Positions 310 to 52,142 of a stretch of 64,000 bases of DNA are shown piece by piece (the first letter of the stretch is position 1; each line of letters opens with the position of its first letter). Below the pieces are notes generated by a model. The model saw nothing but the letters and a program-made list of their open reading frames with translations. It was not told the origin of the DNA and made no database searches. The position numbers and the translations under genes are program-made. The DNA is taken from assembly GCA_963800865.1 (NCBI GenBank), contig CAWDCL010000004.1:1821800-1885799 (forward strand), read 5' to 3'. The DNA comes from an uncultured Acidobacteriota bacterium (GTDB lineage Bacteria; Acidobacteriota; Polarisedimenticolia; J045).

Positions 310-797
310 GGCGTGATCCCGCAGACCTGGCGCAGCGTGTGGGTATAGGTCTCGGCGCCGCGCGTGATCGTGAAGCGCAGCTCCCACATCCCCGGCTCCA
401 GCCGGTCGAGCGTCCCCTCGTACCGGCGGTCGTCGCGCGCGGCGAGCGGGCCCGCCACGCGCCGGCCCGAGTTCGCTCCCTGGAACGCCTCGACCGCGAC
501 CGTCGCGCCCGGCAGCAGTTCCCCGTCCCGGCCGCGCAGCGCGGCCACGACCCAGGAGGCATTCGGCCCCGATCCGCAGCCCGCCTCGAGCCGCCAGCCC
601 AGCGCCTGGTTGGCGCTCTCCTGCGCCATCGTCCCGTCCCAGGCCAGCGCCTTCTGGTAGTAGTCCGGCTCGACCGCGAAGGTCGGGTCGCTGGTGGCCA
701 GCACGACCATCGCGACGTTGGCCCCGATCGCCAGCGCCAGCAGGCCGACGATCAGGAACGGCCAGAAGTGCCCCTTCCGCTTCCGTTCCTCAGTCAT
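306..797 (-). CDS. ccoH: FixH/CcoH, cbb3-type cytochrome oxidase assembly protein
   Basis: 163-aa ORF with an N-terminal TM helix (FWPFLIVGLLALAIGANVAMVVLA) and FixH-like periplasmic domain. It lies immediately downstream of ccoG and its start overlaps the ccoG stop. Confidence 0.7.
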   Translation of the reverse strand: MTEERKRKGHFWPFLIVGLLALAIGANVAMVVLATSDPTFAVEPDYYQKALAWDGTMAQESANQALGWRLEAGCGSGPNASWVVAALRGRDGELLPGATVAVEAFQGANSGRRVAGPLAARDDRRYEGTLDRLEPGMWELRFTITRGAETYTHTLRQVCGITP

Positions 798-2187
798 CAG
801 AGTCCTCCGGGCCGAGGAGCAGGTACTGCTCCTCCTCGACGAAGCCGGCGCCGTCGTCGACGCGGAACGTCACCGGCAGCTGCCCGTCGTCGAAGCGGCC
901 CTTCGACGCGCTGACGAAGATTGTCGTCGTCGCCGACCCGCCGTCGGCCACGGCGAGCGGGTTCTCCGGCGCGATGATCGCCAGCCCCGCCGGCGCGGCG
1001 ATCGACAGCGCGTACTTCCGGTCGGCGCCGCTGCGGTTGACGATCTTGATCCGGATCTGGTTCGCGATCTCCCCGGCCGGCGTCTCGACGAACGGTGCGC
1101 CGATCCCGCGCAGCACGGTCACGTCGGCCGCGCCGCGCCGGGCCAGCGCCACCCCCAGCGCGCCGAAGACCAGCACGAGCAGCACCGGGTAGATGATCAC
1201 GCGCGGCCGCAGGATCCGGCTGGGCTTCCGGTCGAAGCCGTCGACCGAGCCGTAGCGGATCAGTCCGCGCGGCCGCCCGATCCGATCCATGATCCCGTCG
1301 CAGGCGTCGATGCACTGGGTGCAGGCGACGCACTCCATCTGCAGCCCCTTCCGGATGTCGATCCCGGTCGGGCAGGTGATCACGCAGGCCTTGCAGTCGA
1401 TGCAGTCGCCGTAGCTCGCTCCCGGCGGGTCGGCCTTCCTCGGCCGGCCGCGCGGCTCGCCGCGGGCCGCGTCGTAACCGATGATCAGCGAGCGCCGGTC
1501 GAGCAGCACCGACTGGAACCGCCCGTAGGGGCAGGCGACGAGGCAGGTCTGCTCGCGGAACCAGGCGAAGTCCAGGAACATCGCGAGCGTCGTCCCGGCC
1601 ATCACCAGGAAGGCCGTCGGGTGCTCCACCGGCGACTGGCGGACCCAGCGCCAGAGCGCCTCCACGCCGACGAAGTAGGCCAGGAAGGTGTGGGCCAGGC
1701 CCATCGACAGCAGGAAGAAGACGAGCCACTTGGCGACGCGACGCAGGTTCGGGCCCTCACGGTCGAGCCGCATCTGCTTGCCGCGGTCGCCTTCGAACAG
1801 CCGCTCGATCGGCCGGTAGAGGTACTCCATGTAGACCGTCTGCGGGCAGCCCCAGCCGCACCAGACGCGTCCCAGGATCGCCGTCAGCAGGAAGATGGAG
1901 ATGAAGATGCCGACCAGCAGCAGCATCAGGAACATCGTGTCGGTCGGCAGGAAGGTCGTCCCGAACAGCGTGAACTGGCGCTTCGTGATGTCGAGCAGGA
2001 TCAGCGGCTTGCCGTTCATCCGGAGGTACGGGATCACCGTGAAGAGCGCGATCAGGGCCCAGGCCACGACGAAGCGCGCCTTCCAGAACCGGCCCTTCGC
2101 GGGCTTCGGCCGGATCCAGATCCGCTTCCCGTGCGCGTCGAGCGTCGAGAGGACCTGTTCGCCCGCGTCCGGGATCAGGGGGTTCAT
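790..2187 (-). CDS. ccoG: CcoG/FixG, cbb3 oxidase accessory 4Fe-4S ferredoxin-type membrane protein
   Basis: The real start is the internal ATG at 2187 (MNPLIPDAGEQ...). The N-terminal extension of the 669-aa track ORF is a GC artefact. Two ferredoxin Cys clusters (CPQTVYME, CIDCKACVITCP / CVACTQCIDAC) and TM helices are present. The start overlaps the ccoP stop (ATGA). Confidence 0.85.
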   Translation of the reverse strand: MNPLIPDAGEQVLSTLDAHGKRIWIRPKPAKGRFWKARFVVAWALIALFTVIPYLRMNGKPLILLDITKRQFTLFGTTFLPTDTMFLMLLLVGIFISIFLLTAILGRVWCGWGCPQTVYMEYLYRPIERLFEGDRGKQMRLDREGPNLRRVAKWLVFFLLSMGLAHTFLAYFVGVEALWRWVRQSPVEHPTAFLVMAGTTLAMFLDFAWFREQTCLVACPYGRFQSVLLDRRSLIIGYDAARGEPRGRPRKADPPGASYGDCIDCKACVITCPTGIDIRKGLQMECVACTQCIDACDGIMDRIGRPRGLIRYGSVDGFDRKPSRILRPRVIIYPVLLVLVFGALGVALARRGAADVTVLRGIGAPFVETPAGEIANQIRIKIVNRSGADRKYALSIAAPAGLAIIAPENPLAVADGGSATTTIFVSASKGRFDDGQLPVTFRVDDGAGFVEEEQYLLLGPEDSDD

Positions 2188-2885
2188 GGGGCCTTCGGCG
2201 CTCCGGCGGGCGCAGTCGCGGGCGGCCCGGCGCAGCCGATGGCGAAGCCGGGTCCTTCGGTGCGTTGGCGACGATCTCGGCGTCGGCCTTCGCTTCCAGC
2301 GTCTCGCGCTGCGAGGCGTCGAACCGGTCGCCCTGCGGGGCCTTGGGGTTGGGCGGGTTCGTTCCCTTGAGCGTGTCGACGTAGGCGGCGACGCGTGAGG
2401 ATCTGCGCGATCGGGAGCTGCGTCTTCCACGACAGCATCCCCTTGGCCGGGACCCCTTCCATCACCGTGGTGTAGATCTGCGTCGGCAGCGCGCCGTGCA
2501 GCCAGAAGTCGTCGGTCAGGTTGGGGCCGATGTTCCCCTCGCCCTGCATCCCGTGGCAGGGGGAGCACTTCGACTGGAACAGCGCCTGCGCCGCCAGCAT
2601 CTTGTTCTGGTCGCCCTTGAGGCCGTTGAGGGTCTGGTTGGTGATCGGCCCCAGCTTGAGGATCTCCTTCATCTGCATGTCGGAGACGACCAGCATGTTG
2701 CGGTTGTACTGCCCCTCGACCGACTCGCCGGCGCCGAGGTGGTAGTAGACCAGGTAGAACGCCGAGGAGGCGATCGTCAGCCAGAAGAGCACCAGCCACC
2801 AGGTCGGCAGCGGGTTGTCGTACTCCTGGATCCCGTCGAAGGCGTGGTGGCGGAGTTCGTCCTGGGTCGTCAGGTGCTCAGACAT
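2184..2885 (-). CDS. ccoP: CcoP, cbb3-type cytochrome c oxidase subunit III. It appears mono-haem (one CxxCH) and the C-terminal third has ambiguous reading-frame continuity.
   Basis: The real start is ATG at 2885 (MSEHLTTQDELRHHAFDGIQEYDNPLPTWW...), which carries the conserved CcoP N-terminal motif. There is a single CSPCH haem motif. Downstream of ...PIAQILT the annotated frame becomes Arg-rich junk, while the +1 frame encodes a canonical cytochrome c terminal helix (VAAYVDTLKG...). The annotated stop overlaps the ccoG ATG. Confidence 0.7.
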   Translation of the reverse strand: MSEHLTTQDELRHHAFDGIQEYDNPLPTWWLVLFWLTIASSAFYLVYYHLGAGESVEGQYNRNMLVVSDMQMKEILKLGPITNQTLNGLKGDQNKMLAAQALFQSKCSPCHGMQGEGNIGPNLTDDFWLHGALPTQIYTTVMEGVPAKGMLSWKTQLPIAQILTRRRLRRHAQGNEPAQPQGPAGRPVRRLAARDAGSEGRRRDRRQRTEGPGFAIGCAGPPATAPAGAPKAP

Positions 2886-3102
2886 GGCGGGGATCCTCGT
2901 GGCGCGCCGTGCGGCCGGGGAGGCGCCCGGCGGGCGTGCTGTCGTCATCGAGAGGGAGTTGGCGCATCTCTTCCTGGGCCGCCCGGTTCCGCCGGAGGAA
3001 GGTCCAGACGACGATCGCCAGGAAGGCCAGGATCGAGACGATCAGCCCCCACTCCGCGAAACCGGTGAAGCCGGAGCCGCTCATCAGGTCGGAGAGGCTC
3101 AT
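2878..3102 (-). CDS. ccoQ: CcoQ/FixQ, small cbb3 oxidase membrane subunit
   Basis: 74-aa ORF (MSLSDLMSGSGFTGFAEWGLIVSILAFLAIVVWTFLRRNR...) with a single TM helix. Its ATG overlaps the ccoNO stop (TGATG). It is not listed separately in the ORF track because it sits inside a spurious long ORF. Confidence 0.7.
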   Translation of the reverse strand: MSLSDLMSGSGFTGFAEWGLIVSILAFLAIVVWTFLRRNRAAQEEMRQLPLDDDSTPAGRLPGRTARHEDPRHV

Positions 3103-5414
3103 CAGTGCGTTCCCGCGGGGGCGGGTGCGGCGCCGGCGGCCGGGTCGACGGTGGGCGATCCGGGAGCGGCCTCGGCCTGGGCCGGCGCCGGCGGGGCGGC
3201 CGGGGGCTCGCCCGGCGGCGGCAGGTTCTTGATGTCGGTCCCCAGCCGCTGCATGTAGGCCACCAGCGCGATCACCTTCCGGTCCTCGAGCCCCTTCGGC
3301 CCGCCCTGCGCGACGATCGCCTCGGAGATCTTCGCCGCCTGGGCCCGCGCCGCGTCGATCCCGCCCGCGATGTCGGCCTCGCCGTAGGGGACCCCCAGCG
3401 TGCGCATCGCCTTCATGTGGGCCGGGATCGAGCCGAAGTCGAGCGGCGACGCCAGCAGCCACTGGTAGCGCGGCATGATCGACTGCGGCGTCGTGGAGCG
3501 CGGGTTCTCGAAGTGGCGGACGTGCCAGAGGTCGGGGTACTTGCCGCCCACCCGCTGCAGGTCCGGCCCGATCCGGCGCGAGCCCCACTGGAAGGGGTGG
3601 TCGTAGACCGACTCGCCCGGCTTGGCGTACTCGCCGTAGCGCAGCACCTCGGCGTAGATCGGCCGCACCTGCTGGGAGTGGCAGTTGTAGCACCCCTCCG
3701 CCAGGTAGATGTCGCGGCCCGCCAGCTCGAGCGGCGTGAACGGCTTGACCGAGGCGATCGTCGGGACGTTCGCCTTGATCGTGAAGAGCGGAACGATCTG
3801 GAACAGCGACGCGGTGATCACCGCGACCGCGACCCAGACCGTGAAGACCAGCGGCAGCCGCTCCCAGCGGCCGTGCCAGCCGGCGGAGGCGAAGCGCTCG
3901 AGCTTGTAGGCGAAGTTGGTGACGTGGGCCCCGGTCGAGCGCAGGTAGGACGGCCGCGGCGCCGGGTCGACGTAGTGCCTGGCGAGCGCCGGAGCCTCGT
4001 AGACCGGGACCTCGTAGCGTGCGGGGCGCCGGGTCCAGGTCATCACGCCGTTGACGACGCACATGATCGCGCCGACCAGGTAGAGCGTGCCGCCGACGAC
4101 GCGGACCCAGTACATCGGGATCAGCTTCATCGTGGTCTCGATGAAGTCGGGGTAGGCCAGCTGGCCGGTGTCGGTGAAGGCCCGCCACATCAGGCCCTGG
4201 GTCAGGCCGGCGGCGTAGATCGCCACGATGTAGAGCAGGATCCCGACGGTCGCGATCCAGAAGTGGACCTCGGCCCACTTGCGGCTCCACAGCTCGGTCT
4301 GGAACAGCCGCGGGAAGAGCCAGTAGAGCATCCCGAAGGCCATGAAGCCGACCCAGCCCAGCGCGCCGGCGTGGACGTGGGCGATCGTCCAGTCGGTGTA
4401 GTGCGAGAGCGCGTTGACGCTCTTGATCGAGAGCAGCGGCCCCTCGAAGGTCGACATCCCGTAGAAGGTGATCGCGACCACGAAGAACTTCAGGACCGGG
4501 TCCTCGGTGACCTTGTTCCAGGCGCCGCGCAGGGTCAGCAGGCCGTTGATCATCCCGCCCCAGGAGGGCATCCAGAGCATCACCGAGAAGAGCATCCCCA
4601 GCGTCGAGGCCCAGGCCGGCAGCGCGGTGTAGTGCAGGTGGTGCGGCCCGGCCCAGATATAGATGAAGACCAGCGACCAGAAGTGCAGGATCGACAGCTT
4701 GTAGGAGTAGACGGGGCGGTTCGCGGCCTTGGGCAGGAAGTAGTACATCATCCCGAGGATCGGCGTCGTCAGCAGGAAGCCGACCGCGTTGTGGCCGTAC
4801 CACCACTGCATGAAGGCGTCCTGCACGCCGGGGTAGATCGAGTAGCTCTTCAGCCAGCCGGCGGGGACCGCCAGGCTGTTGAAGATGTGCAGCAGCGCGA
4901 TCGTCACCACGGTCGCGATGTAGAACCAGATCGCGACGTAGAGGTGCCGCTCGCGGCGGACCGCGATCGTGCCGAAGAAGTTGACCGCGAAGATCACCCA
5001 GACCAGCGCGATCACGATGTCGATCGGCCACTCCAGCTCGGCGTACTCCTTCCCCGACGTGACGCCGGCCAGGAGCGTCACCGCGGCGGAGACGATGATC
5101 AGCTGCCAGCCCCAGAAGTGGAGCCGGCCGAGCGTGTCGTTCCACATCCGCGTCCTGAGCAGGCGCTGCATCGAGTAGTAGACGCCGGCAAAGATCGCGT
5201 TCGCGGTGAACGCGAAGATGACCGCGTTGGTGTGCAGCGGGCGCAGCCGGCCGAACGACAGCCACGAGGTGGCGAAGTTGAAGGCCGGGTTGGCCAGCTG
5301 CAGCGCGGCGATCACGCCGACCAGCATGCCGACGACGCCCCACAGCATCGTCGCCCAGACGAACATCCGGACGAGGCCGTCGTCGTAGGAAAAGCGTTCC
5401 AACCGTTCGCTCAT
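3102..5414 (-). CDS. ccoNO: Fused CcoN-CcoO (cbb3-type cytochrome c oxidase subunits I+II)
   Basis: 770 aa. The N-terminal ~480 aa is a haem-copper oxidase subunit I with 12 TM helices and conserved His ligands (HNAVGF, HHLHYTA, HVHAGALG). The C-terminal ~250 aa is a CcoO mono-haem domain with CYNCHS. Fused NO proteins are known in several phyla. Confidence 0.9.
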   Translation of the reverse strand: MSERLERFSYDDGLVRMFVWATMLWGVVGMLVGVIAALQLANPAFNFATSWLSFGRLRPLHTNAVIFAFTANAIFAGVYYSMQRLLRTRMWNDTLGRLHFWGWQLIIVSAAVTLLAGVTSGKEYAELEWPIDIVIALVWVIFAVNFFGTIAVRRERHLYVAIWFYIATVVTIALLHIFNSLAVPAGWLKSYSIYPGVQDAFMQWWYGHNAVGFLLTTPILGMMYYFLPKAANRPVYSYKLSILHFWSLVFIYIWAGPHHLHYTALPAWASTLGMLFSVMLWMPSWGGMINGLLTLRGAWNKVTEDPVLKFFVVAITFYGMSTFEGPLLSIKSVNALSHYTDWTIAHVHAGALGWVGFMAFGMLYWLFPRLFQTELWSRKWAEVHFWIATVGILLYIVAIYAAGLTQGLMWRAFTDTGQLAYPDFIETTMKLIPMYWVRVVGGTLYLVGAIMCVVNGVMTWTRRPARYEVPVYEAPALARHYVDPAPRPSYLRSTGAHVTNFAYKLERFASAGWHGRWERLPLVFTVWVAVAVITASLFQIVPLFTIKANVPTIASVKPFTPLELAGRDIYLAEGCYNCHSQQVRPIYAEVLRYGEYAKPGESVYDHPFQWGSRRIGPDLQRVGGKYPDLWHVRHFENPRSTTPQSIMPRYQWLLASPLDFGSIPAHMKAMRTLGVPYGEADIAGGIDAARAQAAKISEAIVAQGGPKGLEDRKVIALVAYMQRLGTDIKNLPPPGEPPAAPPAPAQAEAAPGSPTVDPAAGAAPAPAGTH

Positions 5415-48264: not shown

Positions 48265-50991
<2,727 letters not shown>

Positions 50992-50994
50992 TCC

Positions 50995-51169
50995 GGCTTC
51001 GCCTGCGGCTACGCCGGGCAAGCCCCCGTTCCGGCGCGGCTTCCGCCTCCGCTGCCTCCGATTCGCCTCCATGCGCCGCCCCGGATTTGACCGGGGCTTG
51101 CCCGGGCACCAAGTTCGTCCCGTGCCTCGCCCCTGGCCGGGCCTGCCCGGCGTAGCCGAAGGCGAAGCC
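50995..51169 (+). repeat. Long imperfect inverted repeat (31-nt arms with 2 mismatches, ~113-nt C/T-rich spacer, plus an internal 12-nt copy) occupying the secA-SPFH intergenic region
   Basis: Left arm 50995-51025 is GGCTTCGCCTGCGGCTACGCCGGGCAAGCCC. Right arm 51139-51169 is GGGCCTGCCCGGCGTAGCCGAAGGCGAAGCC, its reverse complement apart from 2 mismatches. The middle 51094-51105 (GGGCTTGCCCGG) also complements the left arm. The right arm ends 1 nt before the GGGAG RBS of the downstream gene. Confidence 0.6.
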
Positions 51170-51179
51170 GGGAGACCGC

Positions 51180-52142
51180 ATGCCCCTCACCCTCGAAGTC
51201 ATCGAGTGGCGCCAGGACGACGGAACCGAGATCGTGCACCGGGTCGAACCGGGCGGCGAGATCAAGCTGGGCGCCCAGCTCACGGTCACCGAGAGCCAGT
51301 GGGCGGTCTTCTTCAAGGACGGACGGGCCTACGACGTCTTCGAGGCCGGCCGGCACCTGCTCGACACGAAGAACATCCCGCTGCTGGTCGAGGTGCTGAA
51401 GCTCCCCTACGGCGGCCGCTCGCCGTTCCGCGCCGACGTCTACTTCGTCGCACGCAAGCTGTTCGCGGACCAGAAGTGGGGGACGCGCGAGCCGGTCGTC
51501 TTCCGCGACCCGCAGTTCGGCATGCTGCGGCTGCGGGCCCACGGCCGCTACGCGATCCACGTCGCCGAGCCGCGGAAGTTCGTGAATGTCCTGGTCGGCA
51601 CGCTCGGCCGCTACACCACGGCCCAGCTCGAGGACTACCTGCGCGAGGTGATCGTCGCCCGGCTGAACGACGCGCTGGGCGAGCTGGCGATCCCGCTGCT
51701 CGATCTTCCGCGCCAGTACGACGAGATCGCCGAGGAGCTGAAACGCCGGATCGCGCCGGACGTCGCGCGGCTCGGCCTCTCGCTCCCGGCGTTCTACATC
51801 GGCGCGATCGTCCCGCCCGAGGAGGTGGCCCGGGTGATCGACGAGCGCTCGTCGATGGCGGCGGTCGGCCTCGAGGGCGACTACCTGCGCTTCAAGGCCG
51901 CGCGGGCGCTGGGGGACGCCGCCGCCGGGAGCGGCGGCGCGGCGGGCGAGGCCGCGGCCGGAGGGGCGGCCGCGGGGATGGGGCTCGGGGTCGGCGCGGG
52001 ACTCGGGATGGCGCTGCCGGGGATGCTGCGCGAGCTTGCGGTGCGGGGGCCGGCGGCGAGCGCCGGCTGCGCGCGCTGCCAGGCCGCGCTGCCGCACGGC
52101 GCTCGCTTCTGCCCGCAGTGCGGCGCGCCGCAGGGCGGCTGA
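51180..52142 (+). CDS. SPFH/band-7-domain protein with Gly/Ala-rich linker and C-terminal CxxC…CxxC zinc ribbon
   Basis: The N-terminal ~230 aa matches the bacterial SPFH-like family ([48 protein letters not shown]…). It ends …[21 protein letters not shown]. Confidence 0.65.

Follow-up and report, generated by a model that had tools for sequence, protein, structure and literature searches.

The stretch of DNA analysed here, 64 kb of a contig from an uncultured Acidobacteriota bacterium (CAWDCL010000004.1; hereafter the window), carries a long inverted repeat in the spacer between secA and a gene for an SPFH protein. The open reading frame (ORF) list places secA, encoding 908 aa with matches to Pfam SecA_DEAD, P-loop_SecA, SecA_SW, SecA_PP_bind and SEC-C, at 48265-50991 on the + strand, with its TGA stop codon at 50989-50991. 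It is followed on the same strand by the SPFH gene (51180-52142; Pfam Band_7_1, E 5e-63, plus a zinc ribbon), which starts with an ATG at 51180 and has a Shine-Dalgarno (SD) sequence GGGAG at 51170-51174 (SD through start codon, 51170-51182), and an IMPDH gene lies downstream. Within the 188-nt intergenic spacer (50992-51179), two arms of 33 nt each, at 50993-51025 and 51139-51171, are complementary at 31/33 positions (94%) and lie 113 nt apart; from arm to arm the whole architecture measures 179 nt. The left copy begins 1 nt beyond the secA stop codon, and the right arm, ending at 51171, overlaps the SD sequence by two bases. The first-pass annotation of this DNA had described arms of 31 nt, which are real and nested in the 33-nt arms, and had let the right arm end one base before GGGAG; its closeness to the SD stands, and the one-base gap does not.

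The spacer is C/T-rich on the + strand (GC skew -0.20, AT skew -0.44 over 51000-51150), with three GCCTCC motifs in the segment 51026-51072, as had been noted before. In its middle, a 12-mer on the + strand (GGGCTTGCCCGG, 51094-51105), which had been taken for a third copy of the repeat, is a 92% direct repeat of 51139-51150, and the left arm's inner end (51014-51029) is 94% complementary to the 16-nt extension of the 12-mer (51090-51105). This segment, which contains TTGCCC and is similar to the repeat unit's 5' flank (see below), does duplicate the start of the right arm and can pair with the left one. The stem as a whole is also beyond chance, as had been proposed. It is the longest high-identity inverted repeat in the window, every other one reaching at most 87%; shuffles of the window never produced two matches to the arm; and the RNA fold of the region has a z-score of -5.4, its minimum-free-energy structure containing both the arm:arm and the left-arm:middle pairings. 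Three roles had been suggested for it, namely a secA terminator, an RNA switch controlling SPFH translation and an element like the repetitive extragenic palindromes (REPs). We consider that the inverted repeat is probably a pair of oppositely oriented copies of a dispersed hairpin repeat, resembling a REP dimer, and not a dedicated regulator; our confidence in any particular physiological effect of the pair is much lower.

The flanks of family members gave a repeat-unit consensus of GGCTTGTC-CCGGCGTAGCC-GAA-GGCGAAGCCGG-A, a unit of about 33 nt in which a 5' flank GGCYTGYC is followed by a 25-nt hairpin. By this consensus the window's entire 33-nt arm, its GGGCTTGCCC part included, corresponds to one family unit. 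The 25-nt core folds into an outer stem CCGGC/GCCGG (5 bp), a 3x3 internal loop GUA/GAA, an inner stem GCC/GGC (3 bp) and a GNA triloop. In the right copy the local hairpin is CCCGGC-GUA-GCC-GAA-GGC-GAA-GCCGGG at 51146-51172, which covers the first three SD bases, and the left copy folds alone as CCGGCUUCGCC-UGC-GGCUACGCCGG (local fold energies of -20.8 and -18.2 kcal/mol, respectively).

A covariance model, R1, was built from the repeat unit and searched against the window with filters off. It returned exactly three members at two loci, the next best match scoring below 20 bits. Two are the arms themselves, the left copy in inverted orientation (50985-51029, - strand; 58.4 bits, E 2e-11) and the right copy in sense orientation (51135-51179, + strand; 54.7 bits). 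The third is a diverged copy at 2215-2259 on the + strand (core 2227-2251, CCGGCGCAGCCGATGGCGAAGCCGG; 40.0 bits, E 4e-7), with 2 mismatches to the core where 0 such matches were expected by chance. It sits at the junction of ccoP (FixP) and ccoG (FixG) in a cbb3 oxidase cluster, antisense to both genes, and has a perfect-consensus ortholog on the orthologous contig of a sister genome (L181:4750; L-numbers denote the fetched loci of relatives and of hairpin-bearing genomes). At L181:4727-4900 the ccoP frame continues across the repeat (...DPASPSATPGKAPQAP*) until its stop codon, which overlaps the ccoG start as ATGA. The window ORFs 2184-2948 (-) and 790-2187 (-) meet at the corresponding junction, and upstream of about 2348 the C-terminal ccoP frame of the window no longer agrees with that of L181, a difference that may reflect a frameshift or an error of assembly.

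A scan of 185,579 GTDB species genomes found the exact pattern CCGGCGNNGCCGNAGGCGAAGCCGG in 96 stretches. Its two free positions read TA in 44 of 100 matches, against an expectation of 1/16, and by our own estimate fewer than one match to the GTAG form would arise by chance even were all genomes 70% GC. Matches, isolates included, came from Acidobacteriota (Sulfomarinibacteraceae, Thermoanaerobaculia, Holophagae and Paludibaculum), Planctomycetota, Verrucomicrobiota, Alphaproteobacteria, Bdellovibrionota and others. Because isolates such as Bradyrhizobium sp. BRP22 carry the repeat, the cross-phylum matches are unlikely to be artefacts of assembly or contamination. Those with other dinucleotides lay mostly within long ORFs of Actinomycetes and were regarded as coding sequence of no relation to the family. 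Crude gene calling placed 59 of the 73 repeat-like matches (second variable base A) between genes (about 80%), and the flanking genes, classed relative to motif orientation on heuristic gene calls, were -/- in 13 cases, +/+ in 9, convergent in 9 and divergent in 4. Applied to the fetched loci (663 kb), R1 added seven further diverged copies, about one per 95 kb. The exact-core scan demanded exact stem matches and so underestimates family size and stem variation, covariation being visible only in copies found secondarily. A search for further copies, which the first-pass annotation had named beforehand as bearing against a gene-specific regulator, thus returned them both in the window and in GTDB genomes. 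Of the roles suggested, the REP-like element gained support because copies exist elsewhere: the third window copy at 2227-2251, the L181 copy and the 96 GTDB stretches.

Stem changes were then compared among the copies. Two compensatory changes were seen in non-canonical copies (CCTGC/GCAGG in L148 and ACC/GGT in L129) and three G-T wobbles among diverged copies, with every G-U on the same strand; five shuffles gave 0 such hairpins. As these changes keep the stems in diverged copies and none arise in shuffles, the local hairpin appears to be under constraint. At L191, which holds a tight inverted pair of the same repeat type, the inner stem of the partner copy covaries. The core GGCGAAGCC (51161-51167 and 51008-51002 of the window) contains GCGAAGC, reportedly described by Hirao and colleagues as a DNA mini-hairpin of exceptional stability, its loop being GAA; the loops of the complementary strand read UUC.

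For comparison with known repeats we drew on two REP papers, Di Nocera et al. 2013 (PMC3733652) and Nunvar et al. 2010 (PMC2817692). In the former, REPs are described as palindromes of 20-40 bp, often with bipartite stems, which lie between unidirectional or convergent ORFs near upstream 3' ends, and REP dimers as inverted copies 20-100 bp apart that fold separately or as one large stem-loop (PMC3733652). On these descriptions the REP dimer, or bacterial interspersed mosaic element (BIME), is the closest known kind. Like REPs of 20-40 bp (PMC3733652, PMC2817692), the window repeat is a short imperfect palindrome forming a GC-rich stem-loop, and its stem is bipartite, with trinucleotides that are not complementary and GCC/GGC as the inner stem, as in GTAG-3 and E. 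coli-type REPs. The family is dispersed and mainly intergenic, often near the 3' end of an upstream ORF, with unidirectional and convergent settings outnumbering divergent ones (22 and 9 vs 4). It has G-T wobbles and compensatory stem changes, and some copies extend into ORF ends, again as described for REPs. The two window copies, like those of a REP dimer, are inverted and able to fold apart or as one large stem-loop, although their 113-nt spacer is just above the usual 20-100. Unlike GTAG REPs, the family has no unpaired terminal GTAG, its GTA lying within the internal loop. The 5' flank TGTC/CGTC of most family members (consensus CTTGTC directly before the stem) resembles the tag of CGTC REPs, whereas the window copies read CTTGC and CCTGC (TTGC/CTGC) in its place, and the stem has neither the A-T pairs that come first nor the 4-5-nt loop or CCA tail given for the four CGTC families (CGTC-1 to CGTC-4) in the text of PMC3733652. 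The repeat is not established as a member of the GTAG or the CGTC superfamily.

The repeat unit had no match among PLSDB plasmids and only 3 among IMG/VR viral contigs. No paper in the searchable literature had the core sequence strings in its text, nor did the supplements of PMC3733652 contain them, and the RepRanger survey (PMC12306157) lists no similar consensus. A described cis-regulatory RNA or riboswitch was rejected, as Rfam 15 covariance models gave 0 matches at the gathering threshold in the window and only chance-level ones up to E = 10 in 50900-51300. On 15 other hairpin loci, Rfam returned only tRNAs and the unrelated Acido-Lenti-1 (RF01687), and no family covered the hairpin. Acido-Lenti-1 is likewise a short hairpin motif repeated in Acidobacteriota genomes and differs in being unrelated in sequence to the window repeat. 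An inverted pair of it lies at L115 (4235-4280, - strand, and 4407-4452, + strand, 126 nt apart), in a Sulfomarinibacteraceae metagenome-assembled genome (MAG) that has the hairpin family too.

The relatives of the SPFH protein are Acidobacteriota MAG proteins, and the gene order secA-SPFH-IMPDH-mgtE-recO-glyQ-glyS is common to the loci fetched through them. The nearest GTDB genome is that of uncultured Acidobacteriota bacterium MFD00032.bin.3.232 (L177 and L181). Both arms are present in L001, L010 and L177, with SPFH identities of 100%, 97% and 93%. Five loci at 87-91% identity (L117, L009, L089, L002 and L085) have the right arm and no left arm; at 80%, L003 also has no left arm and carries a right arm with a 12-nt internal deletion (CCCGGC-GAA-GCCGGG), and both arms are absent from L006 (88%) and L088 (81%). 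By spacer blastn, 51073-51138 is homologous in all relatives. The C/T-rich part (51026-51072, + strand, 47 nt) matches only L001, L177 and L010, pointing to a gain together with the left copy, and no further copy of the spacer turned up in the window or among about 1.2 Mb of other fetched DNA. Because the left arm and the C/T-rich tail are both confined to the closest relatives (at least 93% SPFH identity), the rest being homologous throughout, the spacer comparison shows these roughly 80 nt to be an addition in a recent sub-lineage, and the right copy to be the older one, passed on together with the SPFH 5' leader.

These different ages bear on the idea that the architecture entered the secA-SPFH spacer as a single mobile unit, either a MITE (miniature inverted-repeat transposable element) whose terminal inverted repeats measure 33 nt or a REPIN doublet. 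The 179-nt layout does resemble one with terminal inverted repeats, it is short and non-coding as MITEs are, and tight inverted pairs of the same repeat type occur elsewhere (e.g. L191). However, the interior from 51073 and the right arm are homologous to spacers that have no left arm, so a unit was not inserted as a whole. In contrast to a MITE, the interior is native intergenic DNA, with no further whole-element copies and no evident target-site duplication. REPINs, as Bertels and Rainey reportedly set out in 2011, are REP doublets that form hairpins and serve as a replicative unit mobilised by RAYTs (REP-associated tyrosine transposases). The window doublet likewise consists of two inverted REP-like copies capable of one long hairpin; it differs in not being a unit, since its arms are of different age and its spacer is unique, with native promoter-like sequence. 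The MITE and REPIN readings were also rejected on the C/T-rich spacer, which has no relative outside the closest genomes, and we regard insertion of a single mobile unit as extremely unlikely.

A gene-specific riboregulator, in which the long stem and the alternative left-arm:middle pairing switch access to the SD and thereby SPFH translation, is suggested by the overlap of the right arm with the SD (2-3 nt), by the z-score and the use of both pairings in the minimum-free-energy fold, and by the energies of the two pairings (arm:arm -71 kcal/mol, left-arm:middle about -31 kcal/mol). Against this, no relative below about 93% SPFH identity has the left arm, which is absent in every one at 91% or less with identical synteny. 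RNAalifold on the four genomes with both arms found a compensatory change in 0 of 62 predicted pairs. The only position variable in both arms is the triloop centre (G.A in the window, G-C in L001, U-A in L010 and C.A in L177), which therefore behaves as an unconstrained loop base and not as a constrained stem pair; an apparent compensatory change between the window and L001/L010 was set aside as the unconstrained centre of the local GNA triloop. The middle copy carries two substitutions in L010 and L177 (GGGCCTGCTCGG), and since relatives without any arm still have TTGCC(C) of this segment, it is older than the arms. Both arms are generic members of the dispersed family, and their 31/33 complementarity results from each staying near the family consensus, selection for the long stem being without support. 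With no Rfam match either, and with a promoter-like block between the arms that would leave the main SPFH transcript without the left arm, the RNA switch of the first-pass annotation is unsupported, and we judge such a regulator very unlikely.

The promoter-like block lies at 51087-51115 on the + strand, with a -35-like TTGACC (51087-51092), a 17-nt spacer and a -10-like CAAGTT (51110-51115). The arrangement TTGNNN-N17-NANNTT was found at a fixed place in 11/12 orthologous spacers, at a chance rate of at most 0.5% per spacer (loci including L002, L003, L006, L085, L088, L089 and L090). Examples are TTGCCC...CAAGTT, TTGCTC...CAACTT and TTGCCA...GAGTTT, whose 17-nt spacers differ in sequence. 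The TTGCCC inside GGGCTTGCCCGG is the -35-like hexamer of relatives. In the window lineage this old hexamer is just 6 nt from CAAGTT, and a new TTGACC 11 nt upstream of the old hexamer restores the 17-nt spacing. For the conserved GGCACCAAGTTCG block, a sigma-54 or extracytoplasmic function (ECF) promoter and a GGCAC/GUGCC hairpin were also tried and rejected, each fitting fewer orthologs by eye than the -35/N17/-10 geometry. From the conserved geometry we infer that the SPFH promoter lies between the arms.

That the arms flank this block, and that they are better conserved than the spacer, could also be read at the DNA level, as inverted protein-binding sites bracketing the SPFH promoter (an operator pair or looping) or as a cruciform. 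We find this scarcely probable: single copies of the sequence lie in intergenic settings of every kind and across many phyla, relatives lack one of the arms, and the covariation of the stems speaks for a folded single strand, not for recognition as a duplex.

Copies of the hairpin were also observed beside tRNA genes. In nine alphaproteobacterial genomes (L098, L103, L110, L113, L114, L127, L131, L140 and L165) it occupies one orthologous site, about 65 nt upstream of tRNA-Phe(GAA), and in five unrelated loci (L097, L107, L152, L167 and L182) it lies 25-95 nt downstream of tRNA genes. At L182, from a Phycisphaerae MAG, it occurs between tRNA-Ile and tRNA-Ala and again after tRNA-Ala, a gene pair typical of the rRNA operon spacer. 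All tRNA-adjacent hairpins are on the tRNA strand (14/14, at six independent sites).

The left hairpin, or the whole stem, might instead be retained as the end or stabiliser of the secA mRNA, acting as a terminator without a U-tract or as a block to 3' exonucleases. Its start 1 nt past the secA stop codon fits such a role, as do the five independent loci with a copy downstream of a tRNA gene on the tRNA strand, and in PMC3733652 REPs are typically at most 20 bp from upstream ORF 3' ends and are proposed to be RNA elements. An intrinsic terminator likewise has a GC-rich hairpin directly after a stop codon; unlike one, the left hairpin has no U-tract, being followed by GCAAGCCCCCGUUCC, and a terminator scan found no + strand terminator-like site in 50500-51700. 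Relatives do without the left hairpin, and in secA RNA the left copy is antisense to the family, whereas tRNA-linked copies and G-U wobbles both point to the opposite strand. The earlier suggestion of a secA terminator thus fails for the canonical intrinsic type, while a REP-type role of the left hairpin is possible; that the structure is kept for a function at the secA 3' end seems to us decidedly unlikely.

Under the reading that we favour, a pair of dispersed repeat copies, each copy would fold locally during transcription. The left hairpin at the secA 3' end would act, if at all, as REPs do, by mRNA protection or by pausing or termination independent of a U-tract. SPFH would be transcribed mainly from the promoter between the arms, its mRNA starting near 51122 and carrying only the right hairpin beside the SD. 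The right copy would then be a leader hairpin that is tolerated or has been domesticated, with three SD bases covered by its 3' strand. Only RNA from secA read-through would hold both arms, and there the duplex of about -71 kcal/mol may form and cover two or three SD bases. Such a duplex would be a potential substrate for an RNase III-type enzyme, as a side effect and not as a designed switch.

Several observations weigh against this reading. Exact cores number only 1-7 per GTDB genome; the closest genome, MFD00032.bin.3.232, has three genome-wide (two at L177 and one at L181), and two sister genomes have one each. Classical REPs usually exceed 100 copies per genome (PMC2817692). No RAYT-like ORF was matched in six-frame translations of the window and about 1.2 Mb of fetched DNA, using a regular expression that makes a weak test. 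With both arms in one RNA the predicted fold reaches -116 kcal/mol, against -88 kcal/mol with pairs limited to a 60-nt span, and in this model the long-range duplex is strongly favoured thermodynamically if one RNA holds both arms. Among the four genomes with both arms, about 5/66 arm positions vary against about 19/113 in the spacer, and because the arms vary less than the spacer, some selection on the arms themselves is possible. As for the promoter, a sigma-70 consensus scan returned none, and the -10-like hexamer agrees with TATAAT at 2/6 positions only, which is weak by E. coli standards.

A further reading concerns the family itself, namely that the hairpin is an undescribed cross-phylum structured element, single-stranded as RNA or ssDNA, used in one orientation and read by a widely conserved factor. 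Its features would be the outer stem, the G(U/N)A/GAA internal loop, the inner stem, the GNA triloop, the TGTC-like 5' flank and the d(GCGAAGC)-type mini-hairpin. Hints in this direction are the near-identity, in spite of few copies per genome, across Acidobacteriota, Planctomycetota, Verrucomicrobiota, Alphaproteobacteria and Bdellovibrionota, the compensatory stems, the same-strand G-U wobbles and the 14/14 tRNA-strand copies. In that case the SPFH leader's right copy would be a functional member and the left copy a recent inverted insertion. We hold this to be unlikely.

With the inverted repeat read as a REP-like pair, the finding at this locus seems ordinary in kind, and the repeat family, apparently undescribed, is conserved across phyla to an unusual degree for one of such low copy number. 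The 33-bp stem beside the Shine-Dalgarno sequence does not warrant annotation as a riboswitch or dedicated attenuator, as it would be the by-product of two repeats. Members of the family follow stop codons, occupy 5' leaders and an rRNA spacer, and neighbour tRNA genes. If they share a function (3'-end protection, processing, or a target for a transposase or nuclease), the hairpin would be a useful annotation feature in GC-rich environmental genomes, and it would explain many spurious ORFs, annotated as 'hypothetical protein', that run across it.

Some further observations were made at the SPFH locus. In L002 (267-5495), L009, L089 and L090, SPFH is directly preceded by an efflux operon, encoded on the opposite strand, for MacB/FtsX, an ABC ATPase and a periplasmic adaptor. 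In L002, L009 and L089 it is inserted between secA and SPFH, with the SPFH leader and the right repeat copy retained. The 3' part of the SPFH gene (51900-52140 of the window) has 82-91% GC, and this region varies in length among relatives, which have proteins of 307-385 aa with one or two zinc-ribbon matches.

Elsewhere the hairpin sits within larger composite repeats that vary by lineage. It is bordered by direct repeats CACCTCCGCCGCACGCG in Sulfomarinibacteraceae (L121, L126, L129, L136, L168, L170 and L174), lies between CCTCTCCCC...GGGAGAGG and GTGAGGGGG in Planctomycetota (L095, L106, L119, L146 and L169), and lies between CCTCCCCC...GGGGAGG and GCGGGTGGGGGG in Alphaproteobacteria (L143 and L160). 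At L115, two tandem copies of the hairpin (1564 and 1683) occur within a 119-nt tandem repeat.

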